Of a stretch of 64,000 nucleotides of DNA, positions 3,242-30,035 are shown one piece after another (positions within the stretch are counted from its first letter, which is position 1; each line of letters begins with the position of its first letter). Under the pieces are notes generated by a model, which saw nothing but the letters and a program-made list of their open reading frames with translations, had not been told where the DNA came from and searched no databases. The DNA is taken from contig JAUMUF010000001.1 of the NCBI GenBank assembly GCA_030530825.1, forward strand, positions 322,757-386,756, written 5' to 3'. This DNA comes from a bacterium. Its GTDB lineage: Bacteria; Patescibacteriota; Saccharimonadia; Saccharimonadales; Saccharimonadaceae. The translations under genes were made by a program, and so were the position numbers.

Positions 3242-4333
3242 TTAATTTTGCGGTTTATACAAGCCTTCGTGGCGCTTGCCGTCATAAATCGAAGTCGGAA
3301 TCCGCTTAGTCTTGACCTTTTCTTCAACAATTTGGCGGTTGCGCTCGAGTTTACTGGTTGTTTTTTCAGACTTGGCAGACTTCGAAATATCTTCAATCTG
3401 CCCAGAAGAAAATCCAGCCTCACCCAACCAATCACTTAGTTTCTCTTCAACCTTATCGGAAGTCATCGCTTTAAGCGTCTTGCCATTAAAATTCTCCTGC
3501 CACACAACACCTTGTGCGTCTTTTCCCGTGAAGATCTTTTCAACCAAAAACCATTCTGCGGCCAATTTTGGTCCATTTTCCGGCTGAAAATCTCGCACGG
3601 CTTCAATATATCGCGCCAAAAGGTCTGAATTGGCGAACTTATCACCATTTCCTCCACGAATCACGTAAGGAACCAAATGAGTTTTATATTTTTCAAAGAA
3701 TCCGCTCGATTTTTGAGAAGCAAAAGAATTTCTACAAACTATACAGCCAGGGTCGAAGAAATCAACTGCTGCACCATTGGAGTTTTCTGATTTTTCGCTA
3801 AATTGACCGTAAAAGTGGGAATTTTCGACCATAAAATCTTTTGCCTTAAAAGTCATAAATTTAGTCGGAATAGCATTAAAAATCTCACCCCACTCTTCAA
3901 ACCAATTAGAAACAGGATTTCCACCAGAAACATCATCAATAGAGCAAGCCTCAGCCGACGACAAAGCACAGGCATCTGGCTTACGCACATCACAGGTGCC
4001 AAAGGTCCATAATGCAAGCCCCGATTTAACCAAAGTCAAAAGTGACCAGACCGATACGATAATAATCACCAACGAAGCACCCTCAATCGCAACAGAGACG
4101 GGCTTGACCCAATTCTTATGCTTAACGATGATTTTGGAGAGAATCGAATTCTTGATTTCATCACCAAAATTACTATCACATGCCTTAAAAGTTGCTCGCC
4201 GAGTGAAACAATGGAGAGATTTTTTGAATAATTTAGAAATAGAGTCAGCCAACTTTTTTTGACCAACAAGACGCAAGAATGGCGTAAATAGCCAAATTAT
4301 TAAAAATATAACAAATGCCGCAATACAAATCAT
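3242..4333 (-). CDS. membrane-anchored thioredoxin-fold (DsbA-like) thiol:disulfide oxidoreductase
   Basis: Two N-terminal TM helices are followed by a Cys-rich segment (TCDVRKPDAC...AEAC) and a C-terminal domain. That domain carries FFDPGCIVCRNSF (CxxC) and a cis-Pro-loop-like IPTSIYDGKRHEG motif, as in DsbA-family proteins. The start overlaps the upstream cysteine desulfurase by 4 nt (ATGA). Confidence 0.4.
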   Translation of the reverse strand: MICIAAFVIFLIIWLFTPFLRLVGQKKLADSISKLFKKSLHCFTRRATFKACDSNFGDEIKNSILSKIIVKHKNWVKPVSVAIEGASLVIIIVSVWSLLTLVKSGLALWTFGTCDVRKPDACALSSAEACSIDDVSGGNPVSNWFEEWGEIFNAIPTKFMTFKAKDFMVENSHFYGQFSEKSENSNGAAVDFFDPGCIVCRNSFASQKSSGFFEKYKTHLVPYVIRGGNGDKFANSDLLARYIEAVRDFQPENGPKLAAEWFLVEKIFTGKDAQGVVWQENFNGKTLKAMTSDKVEEKLSDWLGEAGFSSGQIEDISKSAKSEKTTSKLERNRQIVEEKVKTKRIPTSIYDGKRHEGLYKPQN

Positions 4334-5475
4334 CCGAGTATCCTTTCCAAAACCTGTCTTAATTTGACAATATCTTCTTTTGTGTTGTGAAGACCAAGCG
4401 AAATCCTCACTAAATGGGGATAGTTCTTAACTTCTTTGAGATAGTAGTGACAGCAAAAATATCCGCTTCGAACCATAATTCCTTCTTGAGAAAGCGCTTG
4501 AGCGATTAAATGCGCATCCAGATCTTTATGGTAAAAACTAATCACCGGAGAAGATTTCTCATTCAATACCACAACATCTTTTTGCTCTTTTAGAAAGTCA
4601 AAAATTTCTTGCGAAAATTCTGTGATTCGGGAGGATTTTTTGGCTTTTTTTAGCCACTCGAGTGCCGGCTTAAGTGCAATAATCTCCGCCCACGCCTGTA
4701 GTCCCGGCTCAAAAATCGCGTGGATATGATCGCCGTCCAACATCTCGAAATCATCAGCAGTTACGCCCGAAACCATTCCACCGCCAACAAAACTAGTTTT
4801 GATAAATCTGGTCAAATCACGACGCACAATCATAACGCCAAGGCTGGCAGAATATGCTTTATGCGCAGAAAACACAATCGCATCGGCAGGAACTTTTTGA
4901 AGAAGTTCAAAATTAGAGCCAATTGCTTGCGCTGCATCCAAAATAACAAATCCACCCTGTTTTTTAATCTGCTTCACCAACTTAGCCACATTTTCAAGAC
5001 GCCTTCCATCGATATTGGAGACAGCGTTAACAACAACCAAACTGTCCGAAAAATTATTTTCAAGAGAAATAGATCCGTCGATCTCTCTTGGCAAAATAAT
5101 TCTCTCCACACCCGTTCTCTTAGCAAAAGCGATAGTCGACAAAAAAACAGAGTTGTGCTCAATCTCAGTCGTAATAATGCGAGAAATCGGTAGTTCGAGT
5201 TGGCTCAGAAGCAGATTCAATCCATAAGTCGTATTGAGCGTAAAACTTACAAAATAATCGCGCTTTCTTAATTTCAAAAGGTCAATAACAGCCTCTCGAC
5301 TCTCCGCAACCTTTTCGTCAACTTTGCGACCCCAAGCGTATTTCACGCGCTCGCCACAAGAGTTGTACTGCGTAAAATATTCATTCATGACATCCATAAC
5401 AACTCGCGGGCGCAAAGTTTGGCAAGCCCCGTCAAAATAGTGATGATTCTCGCCTAAATAATCAAAATCGTTCAA
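4330..5475 (-). CDS. cysteine desulfurase / class V aminotransferase (SufS/CsdA-like)
   Basis: Contains the PLP-lysine motif SAHKAYSASLG and the catalytic-Cys loop RSGYFCCHYY (compare SufS RSGHHCA). The start codon is TTG, with an AAGGAGGAA SD and an extended -10 (TGaTAAAAT) upstream. Confidence 0.75.
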   Translation of the reverse strand: MNDFDYLGENHHYFDGACQTLRPRVVMDVMNEYFTQYNSCGERVKYAWGRKVDEKVAESREAVIDLLKLRKRDYFVSFTLNTTYGLNLLLSQLELPISRIITTEIEHNSVFLSTIAFAKRTGVERIILPREIDGSISLENNFSDSLVVVNAVSNIDGRRLENVAKLVKQIKKQGGFVILDAAQAIGSNFELLQKVPADAIVFSAHKAYSASLGVMIVRRDLTRFIKTSFVGGGMVSGVTADDFEMLDGDHIHAIFEPGLQAWAEIIALKPALEWLKKAKKSSRITEFSQEIFDFLKEQKDVVVLNEKSSPVISFYHKDLDAHLIAQALSQEGIMVRSGYFCCHYYLKEVKNYPHLVRISLGLHNTKEDIVKLRQVLERILG

Positions 5476-8648: not shown

Positions 8649-8795
8649 TTGATTCCTCTTAAATTTATTATTTAATAGTTGTTCTGGGCGTCAATTTATT
8701 GTTTCGAATTTCGAAATTCAAACCGACACAAAAACAACGCTTCGCCTTTAATTTTAGCATATTTCGAGATTAAAGTAAAGACAAAATTAAGCATC

Positions 8796-10028
8796 CTAAA
8801 CCCGCTCACCCTCGCGCGCACGATTCGCCCATTCATCCGCCATCTCGTTGAATTCATGCCCAGCATGGCCTCTTAACCACTTGATCTCTGCGTGAGAATT
8901 TTGATAAAGTTCAAAGAGAGGCTTGACGATATCCAAGTTTTTGATCTCACCTGATTTCTTTTTCCAGCCAGATTTTTGCCAAGCGGGCGCCCATTTTGTC
9001 AAAACATTGAGCCAAAACTCGCTATCCGTCCAGATCTCCGCCTCCTGTCTGCTCAATATCTCAAGAGCGGACTTAAGCGCCAAACCTTCCATTCTGATAT
9101 TAGTAGAATTTTCCTCGCCGCCAAGAAAAATCGGCGTGCCGTTTTCAATCACCGCGAACCCTCCTGGTCCAGGATTAGGGCTGGCTGAGCCATCGGTATA
9201 AAGCACTCGCTTTTCAACTGATTTTTGAAAAGACTTTTGCTCCTTCTCGAATTCTTCCAACAAAAACTCCGCATCCGCCAACTCTTCTTCGTTAAAGGTT
9301 CCTTCGGCTAATCTAAGAGAAGTTTTATCGTCCAGGCAAATTTCACACCGGCCTTCTTCATACTCCATATCGCCACCATTGACGATTTCGAAATAATTTT
9401 TCTCAACTTCCGCCCAATCGACGATATTCCAAAATGCGTCCACATAATCGGCGCGACGATTTTGATAATTCAAATAATACGCGTGTTCCCAGACGTCAAG
9501 CCCAAGAATCGCACCCGCCCGATAATCTTGATTTGGTGAAGAATCGATCGTCAGATTTCCGTCAATATCCGCAACAAGCCACGCCCAGCCCGAGCCAAAC
9601 CGGCCCAAAGCGGCCTGCTTGAATTGCGCCTGAAACTCAGAAAAAGTGCCAAAATTCTTTTCAATAATCGATAAGAACTTGCTCGATGGAAGATTTTGGC
9701 CGTCGCTGGCAGGTCGTAGAATTCGCCAAAACAGAGAGTGATTAAGATGACCGCCACCATTATTCTCAATTTTAGCAAGAAGCGCGTGGAAATCTGCGCC
9801 AAATTCGAGCGTTTTTCTTTCAAACATGGAACTACTTCTCATTTTAAGCACATTTTCAAGCGACATTTTGGCTATTTCTGGGAAATTCTTTTCCAATTCA
9901 GACCACGCAGCGTTCAAGTTGTCAATATATGCCTGATGATGCTTGGTGTAGTGAATTTCCATCGTTTTTGCGTCTATAAATGGTTCCAACGCATCATACT
10001 CGTATCTTAATTCTGGTAAATTAAACAT
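8796..10028 (-). CDS. fusion protein: Fe/Mn superoxide dismutase (N-terminal ~205 aa) joined to RNase HI (C-terminal ~150 aa)
   Basis: The N-terminal half reads LPELRYEYDALEP...HYTKHHQAYI...GGGHLNHSLFW...FGSGWAWLV...LDVWEHAYYL and carries all four metal ligands. The C-terminal half reads YTDGSASPNPGPGG...RMEG...TDSEF...WLRGHAGHEFNEMADE, the RNase HI DEDD motif. A ~60-aa acidic linker containing CEIC joins them. The likely start is the ATG at 10028 (MFNLPELRY), since the ORF track extends further upstream. Confidence 0.8.
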   Translation of the reverse strand: MFNLPELRYEYDALEPFIDAKTMEIHYTKHHQAYIDNLNAAWSELEKNFPEIAKMSLENVLKMRSSSMFERKTLEFGADFHALLAKIENNGGGHLNHSLFWRILRPASDGQNLPSSKFLSIIEKNFGTFSEFQAQFKQAALGRFGSGWAWLVADIDGNLTIDSSPNQDYRAGAILGLDVWEHAYYLNYQNRRADYVDAFWNIVDWAEVEKNYFEIVNGGDMEYEEGRCEICLDDKTSLRLAEGTFNEEELADAEFLLEEFEKEQKSFQKSVEKRVLYTDGSASPNPGPGGFAVIENGTPIFLGGEENSTNIRMEGLALKSALEILSRQEAEIWTDSEFWLNVLTKWAPAWQKSGWKKKSGEIKNLDIVKPLFELYQNSHAEIKWLRGHAGHEFNEMADEWANRAREGERV

Positions 10029-10761
10029 TTTTTCCTTCCATAAAATTAACTTTTTCAGCAATCGCCCGCTCGACATCTTCCGAGTTGACAAAATAATCTT
10101 CTATATTATCAGGATTGACAAAAATTGCAATTGGTGTAGGATTGGCCAAATATGCCACCAACGCGCCGTGAGTCAGCCCATCGATAGTATCACTGCGGTG
10201 GATCTTCTCAATTCCGCCAAATGTCTTAGCCCTAATCATCGCCTTAGCGCGATCGCCATCAATCACTTCAATATCGACAATCTCACCCCAAATCTGCACA
10301 CCAGTCCGCTTGAGAATGGCCACTCGCTGCTCGTTTTCGCCATCATTCTCAAATGAAATTTGGGGCTTTTTTATTATTTTTTTGACAACAGCAAGCAACA
10401 AAACCGCTCCAGCCAGAATCAGCACAAATCCTATATTGCGCCAAAAATCAAACCGCTGAACAACGGCATTTTCCGGATTAGAATTTTCAAAAATAACCGG
10501 AACCTTTTCACCGATCTGCGGAAGTTTATCAGTTTTTTCTAAAGTGCGCTGGAAGACATTCGAGCCGATTTCGAAATTTATTATTGGCTCATACTCGATT
10601 TTTTCGCCGTTCAAATGCTTTTCAAAAGCAGTAATCTCTGCTTGAATCTTTTGCCAGCCAAGAATATTAGACTTAATAAAGATATCCAGATTGGGCGCAA
10701 CCATAATTCCACCTAAAATCAGCAATATCGCACCCAGAATAAGACTATTATAAGACTTCAT
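10021..10761 (-). CDS. membrane protein, TM-domain-TM-domain topology, paralogue of 10748..11557
   Basis: Two predicted TM helices and the same architecture as the upstream paralogue. The ATG at 10761 (MKSYNSLILG) is preferred over the TTG at 10809. The stop lies 4 nt before the start of the SOD-RNase H gene. Confidence 0.45.
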   Translation of the reverse strand: MKSYNSLILGAILLILGGIMVAPNLDIFIKSNILGWQKIQAEITAFEKHLNGEKIEYEPIINFEIGSNVFQRTLEKTDKLPQIGEKVPVIFENSNPENAVVQRFDFWRNIGFVLILAGAVLLLAVVKKIIKKPQISFENDGENEQRVAILKRTGVQIWGEIVDIEVIDGDRAKAMIRAKTFGGIEKIHRSDTIDGLTHGALVAYLANPTPIAIFVNPDNIEDYFVNSEDVERAIAEKVNFMEGKNV

Positions 10762-11557
10762 CTTTAGACCCTTCACTTTGCGACATCGCCATTTGTTTAA
10801 CGAAATCAAGTGCGCTATTAGAAACCGCTATAATTGACTCTTCTTCAACATAAAATTTTGTCGGATTGCGCCGATCGAAATAAACCGGAATCGGAGTTGG
10901 ACTCTTAAAATAATCGTGCAAATTAGCCTCCGTAATCCGAGTCATAACGCACTTTGTTTCCATATACTGCCCTTGATATTCAAATCCGATGACAACATTG
11001 ATATTTTCCACATTATTAATCCTAACACCGGTATCCTCAAGCCTAACGATCTCACCATTTAGGATATCGCCAGAACTACGAGCATTTTTGATGGCTTTTT
11101 CTTTATTCTTCTGCTTAATAATCGAAGTCGCAATTATCGCAACCCCCAACATACCAAGAGCAAACAATCCACCAGAAATTATCAGCACCGTTGTTGAATG
11201 CTCCCTCATATTATTTGGATTCTTGGGGTTATAGACTATTTCCTTAGTCTCGCCAATGTGATATTCTTGACCAATTATGTACGCACCGTTATTTCGATAT
11301 TCTATACCATCAACAAAGATCTGAAAAACTGGATAAGTTGTGGTATATCTCCTGCCTTTTTTATCGGTATTTTGTTGGGCGTCAATATTCACTACCTTAG
11401 CGTTTGTTTTCTTCCATCCAATAATAGACTTATATTCAGCGGTAGAAGAAAATATATAAAAAGCAATAACCATAGGAGTCAACCCTAACAAAATGCTTGT
11501 GATTCCCATTTTTTTCTTTCTAGGCTTTCCAGCAATCATACCCATTTGGCCAATCAT
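10748..11557 (-). CDS. membrane protein, TM-domain-TM-domain topology (DUF3592-like arrangement, uncertain)
   Basis: Basic N-terminus, two TM helices, and a GAGGAGA SD 13 nt upstream. Confidence 0.45.
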   Translation of the reverse strand: MIGQMGMIAGKPRKKKMGITSILLGLTPMVIAFYIFSSTAEYKSIIGWKKTNAKVVNIDAQQNTDKKGRRYTTTYPVFQIFVDGIEYRNNGAYIIGQEYHIGETKEIVYNPKNPNNMREHSTTVLIISGGLFALGMLGVAIIATSIIKQKNKEKAIKNARSSGDILNGEIVRLEDTGVRINNVENINVVIGFEYQGQYMETKCVMTRITEANLHDYFKSPTPIPVYFDRRNPTKFYVEEESIIAVSNSALDFVKQMAMSQSEGSKDEVL

Positions 11558-11635
11558 ATTACAAATCTTATCTCCTCAAATTTTAATCTTTATGCTTTAA
11601 TTTTACCATAATTACACTATTGAAGCAACCAAATA

Positions 11636-11670
11636 AAACGCCAGCCAAAGCTAGCGTTTTATTGGATTTA
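11636..11670 (-). terminator. rho-independent terminator of rpoC
   Basis: ACGCUAGC-uuug-GCUGGCGU + U-rich tract on the minus strand. Confidence 0.5.
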
Positions 11671-11676
11671 AGCAGA

Positions 11677-14600
11677 TTATAGTTCTGCATTTTCAGCGAA
11701 GTCGGAAGAAACTTCATTTTCTTCTTCGAAAGCCTCATCTTGCGCTTCCGCATTTCGAGCGCCAGTTCCCACAGGGATCTTGCGTCCGATGATGACGTTT
11801 TCTTTGAGACCGTGAAGTTTGTCAACTCGACCAGATACAGCCGCGCCGATAAGAACGCTGGTTGTGTTCTGGAACGATGCAGCAGACAAGAAACTGTCAC
11901 TGTAAATCGAAACTTTAGTGATACCAAGAAGTTGTTGTTTGAATGAAACAAGTTCTTTACCCTCTGCGGCAAGTTGCTTGTTGGCTTCAACAGCAGCAGC
12001 CTTGGATACGATATCACCAGTTACAAAGTCAGAATCGCCAGCATCTTCGATCTGAACTCGGCTAAACATTTGTCGAACGATGATCTCGAGGTGCTTAGAC
12101 GCAATGTCTTGACCTTGGGCTGCGTAAATTCGCAAAATTTCGTTCATAATGTAGCGCTGAGTTGCTTCGATACCTTTGAGTCGCATCAAATCATGAAGAT
12201 TGAGCGAACCGATTGTGAGGCGATCGCCAGCTTCGACAAAATCGTTTTTCGAAACTGTGAGAGCGGCTGTATTTGGAATTTGATATTTGACAGCAGATGA
12301 TTCTGCGGCGGTCAAAATCAACGTATCGCCATTAACTTCAACATTACCATCAAATGGAGCAATGATAGACTTCACGCCATTCTTGTGAGCGATGATGTCG
12401 CCAGTTTTCACGAGAGCGCCGGCTTTGACAACGACATTTCGACCATCGAGAGAGATTTTCTCTTTTCGGCCAGTTTGAGGAGTGATTTGGATGATGTTAA
12501 ATTGTCCGTCTTCCCAAATATCCACAACACCAGCAACTTCTGTAATGTAGGCTTGACCCTTTGGAGTGCGGGCTTCGAGCAACTCTTCAACACGAGGAAG
12601 ACCCTGCGAAATCGCACCAGATCCAGCAACACCAGATGAGTGGAATGTGTTGAGTGTCAACTGCGTTCCAGGCTCACCAACAGATTGGGCGGCAATCACA
12701 CCAACTGGTTCTGCGTTTTTAACGAGAAGGCCAGTCGCCATATCGATACCGTAAGACTTCTGCGGGATTCCTGAAAGGTTAGATGTTGAAAGAACGCTTT
12801 GGATTTTAACACTTTGGATTTTGTCATCCTTCTCGATGGCATTAGCAATCTCTCGTGTGATGAGTTGATCGGCTTCAATGTGACCTGGAACTGCTTCAGC
12901 AGTGAAGCGTCCGTAGAGGCGGTCACCGAATTCGATCATAGTCTCTTTGGTTTCATTACGGTAAATTGCGAAGCCTTCGTCATCACCTTCTTCATCAGCA
13001 ACAGAGAAGACATCCTGAGCCACGTCAACAAGACGACGAGTCAAATAACCAGAGTCGGCAGTCTTGAGAGCCGTCGAGATAAGACCTTGACGAGCACCAC
13101 GAGTCGCCACAAAGGCTTCAAGCGATGACATACCGTGTGTGTAATTTGAGCGGATAGGCAACTCGATTTCTCGGTTGGTTGCGTCCACCATAATTCCGGT
13201 TAGACCAGATGCAAGACGAATATTGGTTGCATTACCACGAGATCCAGAAACTGCCATCAAACCAACTGGACTGTCAGCACCTTCAGTTGCGACGCGGTTT
13301 TTAATTTCAGCGTCAACCTTATCAATTGCTTGATGCCAGTTGTCGATGATCAAGTTGTATCGCTCTTGATCAGTCAAAAGACCTTGGTCATATTGCTCTT
13401 GGATCAAAGTAGTCTTATCGTCACCCTCTTTGATGATTTCTGGGATCTTTTCAGATTCATAAACTGTATAATCCTCTTTACCGATAGAAAGACCAGATTT
13501 TGTAACAAAACGGAATGACAATCCCTTAATTTTGTCGGCGATTTTAACGGTCATTTCTGGGCCGTAAATCGCAAACATATCAGCGAGAACCTTGTTGATT
13601 TCTTTCTTGGTTTGCGGATTGTTATTGTATGGGTAATCGCTTGGCAAGAGCTCATTGAAGAAAACTCGACCGAGTGTTGTGTTGCGGATCTCACCCTTAG
13701 CATAAACACGGATTGGAGTTTGAAGCGCAATCTTGCCAGCGTCGTAGGCCATTTCGGCTTCATAAACTGAGGCGAAAGGCTTAACTTCTTTCGAAGCTTC
13801 ACTTTGCTTTTCGTAAGTCAAGTAGTAGTTTCCGTAAACGACGTCCTGGTCGACAGAAAGAACTGGCTGACCATCGGCTGGCTTCAACAAGTTGTGCGAA
13901 ATGCTCATCAAATCGCGAGCTTCAGCCTGAGCGGCGTCAGAAAGCGGCAAGTGAACAGCCATCTGGTCACCGTCATAGTCGGCGTTAAATCCGTTAGCCA
14001 CGAGCGGGTGAAGTTGGATCGCTTTACCGTCAACGAGTTTTGGCTGGAAGGCCTGAATACTTAGGCGGTGAAGTGATGGAGCGCGGTTTAAGAGGACATA
14101 TTTATCCACGATAACTTCATCCAAAGCGTCCCAAACTTCAGCAGCACCAGCGTCAATCAAACGAGTTGCGCTTCGAATGTTATGCGCGTAGTCTTTTTCA
14201 ATCAACCAAGAAATAATGAACGGCTTAAAGAGTTCAAGCGCCATTTGCTTTGGAAGACCGCATTGATGAGCCTTAAGGGTTGGACCGACAACGATCACAG
14301 AACGACCAGAGTAGTCAACGCGCTTACCAAGAAGGTTCTGACGGAAGCGACCCTGCTTACCTTTGAGCATATCGCTGAGTGACTTGAGTTTGCGTCGACC
14401 GCCAGTTGTGTTGGCGCTTCGACCGCTTCGAGAAGCATTGTTGTCGATGAGTGAGTCAACGGCCTCTTGGAGCATTCGCATTTCGTTGCGCTTGATTACC
14501 ATTGGGGCGTTAAGTTCAATCAACTTCTTCAAGCGGTTGTTGCGGTTGATAACTCGGCGATAAAGATCATTGAGATCAGATGTCGCAAAACGACCACCAG

Positions 14601-28972: not shown

Positions 28973-29452
28973 TTAGCCTCGAGCAAAGTGCGCAAATGCG
29001 CGGTTGGCTTCTGCCATTCGGTGAGTATCTTCTTTCTTCTTGAAAGCAGCACCGGTTTCGTTGTAAGCGTCAACGATCTCCAAAGCAAGTCGTTGGCTGT
29101 AAGGCATACCTGAGCGTGCGCGAGCAGATTGTACAAGCCAAGAGAATGCGTAATGAAGTTGTCGGTGACCAGCAACTGGGAATGGAATCTGGTAGTTAGC
29201 ACCACCAACTCGGCGAGATTTAACTTCGAAAGAAGGTGAAACATTCTTCAATGCTTTTTCAAAAACTTCCAAAGGATTTTCGCTTTCAAGTCGGCGAGCA
29301 GCTTCTTCCAAGGCTTTGTAAACAGCCTTTTCTGCTACCAATTTCTTACCGTCAAGCATAGATTTGTTGATAAGTCGTTGAACCAAGATTGATTGGTATT
29401 TTCGGTCTGGGTTCAATTCTCGTTGTAGTTTTTTGGTTACTTTGCGTGGCAT
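28973..29452 (-). CDS. rpsG: 30S ribosomal protein S7
   Basis: MPRK...KYQSILVQRLINK... is canonical S7. Confidence 0.95.
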   Translation of the reverse strand: MPRKVTKKLQRELNPDRKYQSILVQRLINKSMLDGKKLVAEKAVYKALEEAARRLESENPLEVFEKALKNVSPSFEVKSRRVGGANYQIPFPVAGHRQLHYAFSWLVQSARARSGMPYSQRLALEIVDAYNETGAAFKKKEDTHRMAEANRAFAHFARG

Positions 29453-29455
29453 AGA

Positions 29456-29866
29456 TTATTTCTCCCTCTTCGCACCGTATTTCGAGCGACCTTGTTTTCG
29501 ACCATTTACACCTTGAAGGTCCAAAGCACCACGAACGATGTGGTAACGAACACCTGGAAGGTCAGGCACACGTCCACCGCGGACAAGCACAACTGCGTGC
29601 TCTTGAAGGTTGTGACCTTCACCACCGATGTAAGCCCAAACTTCGTGACCGTTAGTTAGACGCACACGAGCAACTTTTCGAAGCGCTGAGTTAGGCTTTT
29701 TAGGTGTTTTAGTTGTAACTTTGACACAAACACCGCGCTTAAGTGGGGCATTTTGTGCGTAATATTTGGTTTTTAGTGCGTTGTGAATTCGTCCCAAGGC
29801 TGGCGATTTTGATTTTTTCGCAGCAACCTTACGAGGCTTTCGCACTAACTGATTGATTGTTGGCAT
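29456..29866 (-). CDS. rpsL: 30S ribosomal protein S12
   Basis: [10 protein letters not shown]...[10 protein letters not shown] is canonical S12 with wild-type K at the streptomycin site. ATG at 29866 with an AAGGGAGAA SD. Confidence 0.95.
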
Positions 29867-30035
29867 CAATTCTCCCTTATTAAATTTATTATTTCGAAGT
29901 CGCCAGAGTGATAAATTCCTTCAACTTCGCCTCATATTTCTTCAAAACAGCATTTTCGAAGAAATGTCTTTACCTTTTTGCTTTCGAAATATCCACACAC
30001 GAAATCTCGAACCAAAAAGAGGAAACTCACTAGAT

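Follow-up and report, generated by a model that had tools for sequence, protein, structure and literature searches.

The 578-kb bacterial contig JAUMUF010000001.1, of which we analyzed a 64-kb stretch (hereafter the window), carries on its reverse strand a single open reading frame (ORF), sod-rnhA, that joins a superoxide dismutase (SOD) of the Fe/Mn family to a ribonuclease HI (RNase HI). Within the 410-residue polypeptide the SOD occupies residues 2-211, an acidic linker residues 217-272 and the RNase HI residues 274-404, and a Pfam scan returns Sod_Fe_N, Sod_Fe_C and RNase_H only. This is probably a genuine bifunctional polypeptide, a Mn-type SOD with an E. coli-type RNase HI attached through a flexible acidic linker, that arose as an opportunistic fusion and whose two activities are independent of each other. 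It combines two ordinary, well-understood enzymes in a new domain architecture that is confined to a narrow clade of Saccharibacteria and has apparently not been described so far, and the fusion by itself is no sign of a new kind of system. Its relatives offer a traceable case of the birth of a gene fusion, followed by its loss or replacement, at one locus of an ultra-small genome.

The in-frame fusion with complete catalytic sets that had been proposed in the initial annotation is borne out by the ORF, by the Pfam assignments and by the invariant residues described below. The reading frame is open throughout and is interrupted in the linker by neither a frameshift nor a stop codon, two of the defects named in that annotation as arguments against a real fusion. 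There is no break in GC content or skew at the junction of the SOD and RNase H halves. A 431-residue version initiating at an upstream TTG was rejected; this longer start is not credible because all homologues begin at MFNLPELRYEYDALEP, the canonical SOD N-terminus of the Fe/Mn family, which aligns with that of every homologue. No second SOD or RNase H gene, and no gene for a thymidylate kinase (Tmk), was found within the 64-kb window.

An alignment of 12 fusion sequences shows that the SOD metal ligands H26, H97, D178 and H182, which we take to correspond to H26/H81/D167/H171 of the E. coli enzyme, are invariant, as are the outer-sphere residues H30, Y34, Q167, W180, E181 and Y185. H30 and Y34 are the gateway residues of the alpha-hairpin domain, and E181 and Y185 constitute the dimer bridge of the C-terminal domain. 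The signature of Mn-type enzymes is a Gln in the C-terminal domain together with a Gly, instead of a Gln, in the GGH motif. The fusion possesses both, as Q167 (PNQD) and G93 (GGGHLNH), each of them invariant, and these signature residues point to Mn-type metal specificity. The top PDB matches of the SOD half are all MnSODs (E 1e-49 to 1e-59). Bacterial MnSOD SodA, as represented by the E. coli (1D5N), Thermus (1MNG) and Bacillus (2RCV) structures, has both Pfam domains in common with the fusion, and the likeness extends to the four metal ligands, the H30/Y34 gateway, Q167, G93 and the WEHAYY dimer bridge. Unlike SodA, the fusion bears a C-terminal linker and an RNase HI domain, and it falls under the NCBIfam equivalog cut-off for MnSOD (top match SOD [Mn] NF008177, 188 bits versus 363). 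Judged by its sequence, the SOD half is a divergent member that is assigned at the family level only. Dismutase activity and dimer formation of the fusion are predicted from the conserved residues.

The RNase HI residues D279 (TDGS), E314 (RMEG), D335 (TDSE), H388 and D398 (MADE) are likewise invariant in the 12 fusion sequences, and they align to D10/E48/D70/H124/D134 of E. coli RNase HI. The basic protrusion KWAPAWQKSGWKKKSGEIKNLD aligns gap-free to the WIHNWKKRGWK... region of the E. coli enzyme, which also provides the top PDB matches of this half (E about 1e-23). The catalytic DEDD + His set, the basic protrusion and a size of ~138 residues are thus features common to E. coli-type RnhA and the RNase HI of the fusion, and in close relatives the same module is a stand-alone 138-residue protein encoded at the same locus. 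Unlike E. coli-type RnhA, however, the module has no start codon of its own and forms the C-terminal part of an SOD polypeptide; the start Met of the stand-alone protein is replaced by Lys in all fusions. It also differs in falling under the NCBIfam equivalog cut-off (top match RNase HI NF001236, 105.7 bits versus 160). From these residues the fusion is expected to cleave RNA:DNA hybrids.

The same 410-residue ORF was assembled independently, and identically, from the sequencing runs SRR24915806 and SRR24915833 (Logan assemblies). A search of 5.8 billion protein clusters recovered 11 clusters, formed at 90% identity, with the same three-domain architecture; their representatives are 369-416 residues long and 54-97% identical to the query over 100% of its length. 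The clusters are seen on more than 100 contigs, and some have dozens of members, on tens of contigs each. The initial annotation had asked whether, and in which clades, the domain pair is conserved; these clusters show that it is, within a narrow Saccharibacteria clade. When the window is compared with L157, the closest pair with unsaturated synonymous divergence (dS), the ratio of nonsynonymous to synonymous divergence (dN/dS) is 0.10 for the SOD, 0.05 for the linker and 0.03 for the RNase H, and both enzyme halves are under purifying selection. The EF-Tu of the source organism is 96-97% identical to proteins of Candidatus Nanogingivalis, Ca. Nanogingivalaceae and Ca. Saccharimonas, and this places the host in the Saccharibacteria (Saccharimonadota), close to Candidatus Nanogingivalaceae. 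A profile search of 1.84 billion cluster representatives revealed no other protein matching both halves among its best 150 matches; absence elsewhere is only weakly supported by this result, because the fusion family seems to have been absorbed into the cluster represented by P0018, a protein in which the RNase H is fused to Tmk. A scan of genome contigs with the fusion alignment was dominated by the ubiquitous SOD motif DVWEHAYY and is uninformative on the fusion in GTDB species; a fused RNase H was present at none of the 80 loci among the matches listed, all of which are stand-alone SODs of at most 52% identity.

The origin of the fusion can be reconstructed from relatives that lack it. Scanning metagenome contigs of JGI and ENA with the RNase H half identified 56 loci. 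In L123 (4329-5414), sod and rnhA are separate genes directly downstream of rpoC that share a reading frame and have only 3 nt between them: rpoC is followed by a sod gene of 221 codons (4329..4994) ending in TAG, by GCT, and by an rnhA gene of 138 codons whose ATG is at 4998. A single substitution in the sod stop codon would create an SOD-RNase HI fusion, and this arrangement is likely the precursor state. Adjacent separate genes had been regarded in the initial annotation as a finding contrary to the fusion; they do occur, in this one outgroup relative, where they explain how the fusion originated and do not refute it. L093-L095 represent a more distantly related lineage, and there sod is located some 2.4 kb ahead of rnhA.

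The RNase H half is 77-80% identical to Tmk-fused and stand-alone forms that are encoded at the same position after rpoC. One sister lineage has a stand-alone rnhA of 138 codons at the rpoC-proximal locus, and at that locus the sister Saccharibacteria L083-L086 have a Tmk-RNase HI fusion (P0014-P0018, 356-363 residues; gene at 8001-9092 in L083 and L084). The latter is common, with 37 cluster members and contigs of up to 489 kb; its JGI name is just 'dTMP kinase', and the NCBI annotation splits off a 163-residue 'ribonuclease H' (MDO4868061.1). The Tmk-RNase HI and SOD fusions share their locus (rpoC, a small DUF3592-like protein, then the fusion), a C-terminal RNase HI that is 77-78% identical between them, an N-terminal partner and the junction ...KR[IV]LYTDGS. 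They differ in the partner itself and in the linker; sequence comparison found no homology of the SOD-fusion linker to the Tmk half or the Tmk linker.

Single-protein neighbor-joining trees were used to order these states. The SOD halves of the fusions are monophyletic (86% bootstrap), and the stand-alone SODs of L123 and L093 are their sister group (94%), a topology indicating that the SOD was passed on vertically and that the fusion took place once. No taxon in the RpoC tree is more divergent than L123; the basal split of the ingroup has SOD-fusion lineages on either side, and the Tmk-fusion and stand-alone lineages form a sister pair (100%) placed within them. The most parsimonious series would therefore run from adjacent genes to the fusion and, in one sub-lineage, to loss of the SOD or its exchange for Tmk. 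This order is provisional, because the trees are of single proteins and the RNase H tree is poorly resolved. Such a series fits the published depletion of Fe-Mn SOD in animal-associated Saccharibacteria (PMC8406219).

The linker, described in the initial annotation as acidic and some 60 residues long, spans about 56 residues with 18 D+E versus 6 K+R. Among homologues it ranges from 18 to 62 residues, with length differences that are always in frame, and is net acidic throughout; for divergent pairs its dN/dS is above that of both domains, and the Pfam scan found no family matching it. AlphaFold2 models both domains with a predicted local distance difference test score (pLDDT) above 90, the linker (residues 221-271) with a score of 37-55 and the whole protein with a predicted template modeling score (pTM) of 0.57. 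These values describe two well-formed domains with no defined mutual orientation, and no inter-domain interface is predicted. The CEIC motif that had been singled out in the initial annotation is present as C228-x2-C231, and in most fusion lineages the sole cysteines of the protein are the two of a linker motif, [FY]EEGxC(x2 or x4)C. The motif is only semi-conserved, however: its spacing is x2 or x4, it is missing in the P0010 lineage, which has an 18-residue linker, and it is down to one Cys in the P0011 lineage, and both of these lineages keep the fusion. The Cys pair could be a redox site, a metal site or a case of chance conservation.

We propose that the ancestral ORF goes back to a single fusion event, in which closely packed sod and rnhA genes lost the stop codon that separated them, and that the linker grew afterwards. 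Translation would start at the SOD and would be coupled to that of the upstream DUF3592 gene. The SOD half would form the usual dimer through the E181/Y185 bridge and dismutate superoxide, and each subunit would carry, on a flexible acidic tether, an RNase HI that cuts the RNA strand of RNA:DNA hybrids, with the two activities working independently. The fusion may have been kept because it guarantees, at no regulatory cost, the co-expression of two enzymes that a minimal genome needs, without any coupling of their chemistries. Some observations weigh against this proposal. Both halves miss the NCBIfam equivalog cut-offs (188 versus 363 bits for MnSOD, 105.7 versus 160 for RNase HI). The RNase H-domain tree is poorly supported, and in it the main Tmk-fusion clade is not nested inside the SOD-fusion clade. 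The fusion has persisted in lineages that differ from one another in RpoC by as much as about 15%, which could reflect a selective advantage of physical coupling. Finally, the semi-conserved Cys pair, containing the only cysteines of the protein, suggests that the linker is more than a passive tether.

Fusions of RNase H to other enzymes are known. Mycobacterial RnhC (Rv2228c), an RNase HI-CobC acid phosphatase, is likewise a bacterial RNase HI fused to an unrelated enzyme (bioRxiv 10.1101/2022.11.09.515703); it differs in having the RNase HI at the N-terminus and a His_Phos_1 phosphatase as partner, a domain that is lacking in the fusion described here. RelZ (MS_RHII-RSD) of Mycobacterium smegmatis, an RNase HII-(p)ppGpp synthetase, likewise joins RNase H activity to a stress-response enzyme and is the subject of a proposed model that connects the removal of R-loops with stress (PMC7591505). 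It differs in that its RNase H is of type 2 and its partner is a RelA/SpoT synthetase, whereas the RNase H of the SOD fusion is of type 1. Furthermore, isolated RelZ domains have been reported to be inactive, whereas the RNase HI module of the SOD fusion stands alone in relatives. None of the partner domains of known RNase H fusions (His_Phos_1, RelA_SpoT and the hybrid-binding domain of HBD-RNase H1) was detected by Pfam in the SOD fusion. The 300-residue protein P0310, with an RNase HI at its N-terminus (residues 3-138) followed by ~160 further residues, may be another RNase HI fusion. In L093-L095, a 533-residue His_Phos_1 protein is encoded immediately upstream of the stand-alone rnhA (for example, L093 2535-4703), an arrangement that recalls mycobacterial RnhC.

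The initial annotation had suggested a functional link between oxidative stress and the processing of R-loops or primers. This suggestion fares poorly: the two genes are separate in L123, the RNase HI is fused to Tmk or to nothing in sister lineages, the linker is variable and the two domains have no defined geometry. An obligatory link between SOD and R-loops is less likely because the partner may be SOD, Tmk or none, because the linker varies from 18 to 62 residues and because no interface is predicted. If the activities were nevertheless coupled, which is the less likely reading, the fusion would be a compact natural system in which to test the relation of oxidative stress to the processing of RNA:DNA hybrids. 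The idea of coupling is not dismissed altogether, mainly on account of the linker Cys pair.

The alternative that survives best, although we consider it unlikely, is that the fusion creates a tethered antioxidant: the basic protrusion of the RNase HI would anchor the SOD dimer to the nucleoid, to replication forks or to R-loops, such that superoxide is removed next to DNA, or the SOD dimer would make the RNase HI bivalent. Retention of the fusion with both active sites over considerable divergence favors this possibility, as do the precedent of RelZ, in which an RNase H is joined to a stress-response enzyme (PMC7591505), and 1994 work as cited in a passage of PMC3784963. It is opposed by the finding that in nested sister lineages the SOD module at this same locus is replaceable, by Tmk or by nothing, by the separate sod and rnhA genes of the outgroup L123, and by a linker of unconstrained length between domains with no predicted interface. 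Similarly unlikely is a broader adaptive version, in which the RNase HI tethers the MnSOD dimer to RNA:DNA hybrids and the nucleoid and the linker Cys pair is a redox-sensitive or inter-subunit metal site that alters, as oxidant load rises, how the two RNase HI modules are presented; if true, such a fusion would couple oxidative stress directly to the processing of R-loops and primers in an organism that has hardly any regulatory repertoire.

It is decidedly improbable that the RNase H is gated by redox state or metal, with a disulfide between the linker cysteines, or an inter-subunit metal site built from two CxxC motifs (compare the zinc hook of Rad50), switching the RNase HI modules according to oxidant load. 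The protein's only cysteines do form, in most lineages, the [FY]EEGxC(x2 or x4)C pair, which directly follows the SOD domain in an otherwise variable linker, but the fusion is kept both in P0010, in which the motif is absent, and in the P0011 group, which has one Cys. Moreover, the spacing of the cysteines is not fixed, AlphaFold2 confidence is low in this region, and no family matches the linker. More improbable still is that the ORF gives rise to two proteins, the RNase H being made from the internal M221 and the full polypeptide being minor or absent. The NCBI record does start a 190-residue ribonuclease H at M221, and a weak GGTGG lies 4 nt upstream of its ATG. M221 is not conserved, however, which rules it out as a conserved internal start; the fusions share no in-frame start ahead of the RNase H domain, the start Met of the stand-alone protein is Lys in all fusions, and linker length differences are always in frame. 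The lack of a conserved internal start, together with in-frame linkers, is the pattern expected if expression of the RNase H depends on read-through from the SOD start. An artefact has a negligible chance of being the explanation: the SOD half has no protein record, as may happen when an annotation pipeline treats a region as defective, but a chimeric assembly or a sequencing frameshift is excluded for practical purposes because the ORF recurs identically in two independent assemblies and the architecture in 11 clusters drawn from many samples and assemblers, and a decaying SOD pseudogene joined to rnhA is ruled out by the invariant ligands and the SOD dN/dS of 0.10, the junction being free of any compositional break.

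The way in which the gene has been annotated has consequences of its own. The deposited accessions are, in order, MDO4902274 (EF-G), MDO4902275 ('ribonuclease H'), MDO4902276 and MDO4902277 (DUF3592 proteins) and MDO4902278 (RpoC), and among MDO4902273-MDO4902278 no protein record covers the SOD half (window 9366-10028). Because only the RNase H part is called, from the internal M221, this metagenome-assembled genome (MAG) appears to lack SOD at the protein level. The fusion clusters have no UniRef or NCBI name, and their JGI label is 'Fe-Mn family superoxide dismutase'. A literature search found no paper describing an SOD-RNase H fusion or a Tmk-RNase H fusion, in line with the statement in the initial annotation that no described SodA-RnhA fusion was known. 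Split-called fusion genes of this kind constitute a blind spot, through which gene-content surveys could miss or mis-assign them. Animal-associated Saccharibacteria have been reported to be depleted in Fe-Mn SOD (PMC8406219), and surveys of this type are an example of counts that such annotation could affect.

Table 1. Positions in the window of the sod-rnhA fusion, its parts and adjacent features
Feature	Position	Strand	Basis or remark
sod-rnhA fusion ORF, 410 aa + stop	8796..10028	(-)	Uninterrupted from ATG to stop; Pfam; homologues
Fe/Mn SOD alpha-hairpin domain, residues 2-104	9717..10025	(-)	PF00081, 90.4 bits vs gathering score 27; pLDDT about 90
Fe/Mn SOD C-terminal domain, residues 115-211	9396..9686	(-)	PF02777, 121.5 bits vs gathering score 20.9
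Acidic variable linker, residues 217-272 (about 56 aa)	9213..9380	(-)	pLDDT 37-55
M221 codon, start of deposited 190-aa 'ribonuclease H' MDO4902275.1	9366..9368	(-)	Not conserved in homologues
C228-E-I-C231 (CEIC), only two cysteines of the protein	9336..9347	(-)	Semi-conserved [FY]EEGxC(x2 or x4)C motif
RNase HI domain, residues 274-404	8817..9209	(-)	PF00075, 99.1 bits vs gathering score 25.8; pLDDT >90
8-nt overlap ATGTTTAA of fusion start codon and upstream DUF3592 stop codon	10021..10028	(-)	Same in relatives
DUF3592-like membrane protein, 246 aa as annotated, MDO4902276.1	10021..10761	(-)	Upstream neighbor in all three locus variants
DUF3592 membrane protein, 269 aa, MDO4902277.1	10748..11557	(-)	Distant paralogue of MDO4902276.1
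Promoter-like TTGACG-16-AATAAT, between fusion stop and fusA	8667..8694	(-)	Consensus match only

Synteny was compared in seven fusion lineages (L081, L082, L087, L096, L098, L099 and L157), in which rpoB and rpoC are followed by one or two genes for DUF3592-like membrane proteins, then by the fusion, in some cases by a cupin gene, and finally by fusA. An AAGGA Shine-Dalgarno-like motif is located directly upstream of the fusion start. The overlap of the fusion ATG with the upstream stop codon suggests translational coupling, and the same 8-nt overlap is present in five of the seven lineages (L081, L082, L096, L099 and L157). The two DUF3592 membrane proteins of the window are 20% identical (E 4e-6). 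The operon with two paralogous membrane proteins that had been put forward in the initial annotation is plausible in the light of this overlap and of the identity between the pair. The promoter-like sequence suggests a separate promoter for fusA, with the fusion as the final gene of its unit; scans for terminators and promoters yielded nothing decisive on operon boundaries.

In every case the RNase H gene follows a gene for a DUF3592-like membrane protein (window 10021-11557; L081, L082, L083, L087, L090, L098 and L099). In the SOD-fusion lineages this protein has about 240-270 residues, with an additional conserved domain at its C-terminus (...GEIVDIEV...NPTPI...); the Tmk-fusion and stand-alone lineages have a truncated version of 150-178 residues. 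The rpsL (137 aa) and rpsG (159 aa) genes of the window (28973-29869, reverse strand), whose products are 95% and 89% identical to their L123 counterparts, are ~20 kb from fusA, and in L123 and L093 they lie between rnhA and fusA. This displacement from fusA indicates that the fusion clade has a broken version of the classical str operon.

Several other features were noted. In L090-L092, which have the stand-alone rnhA, a Hachiman-type defense pair, HamA (PF08878) and a DEAD/ResIII helicase, is encoded just downstream of fusA (about 10290-13260). In L083 (11700-17092) and L085 (7360-12727), recG and fusA are separated by an inserted block of small genes, among them one for a YqaJ-type exonuclease and one for an SLT lysozyme-like protein; the block is missing from the otherwise identical L084 and is probably a prophage or other mobile element. 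Tandem duplicated Fe/Mn SOD genes occur in two unrelated MAGs, those of an uncultured bacterium (L001 6001-7354) and a Marinilabiliaceae bacterium (L014 6001-7291).

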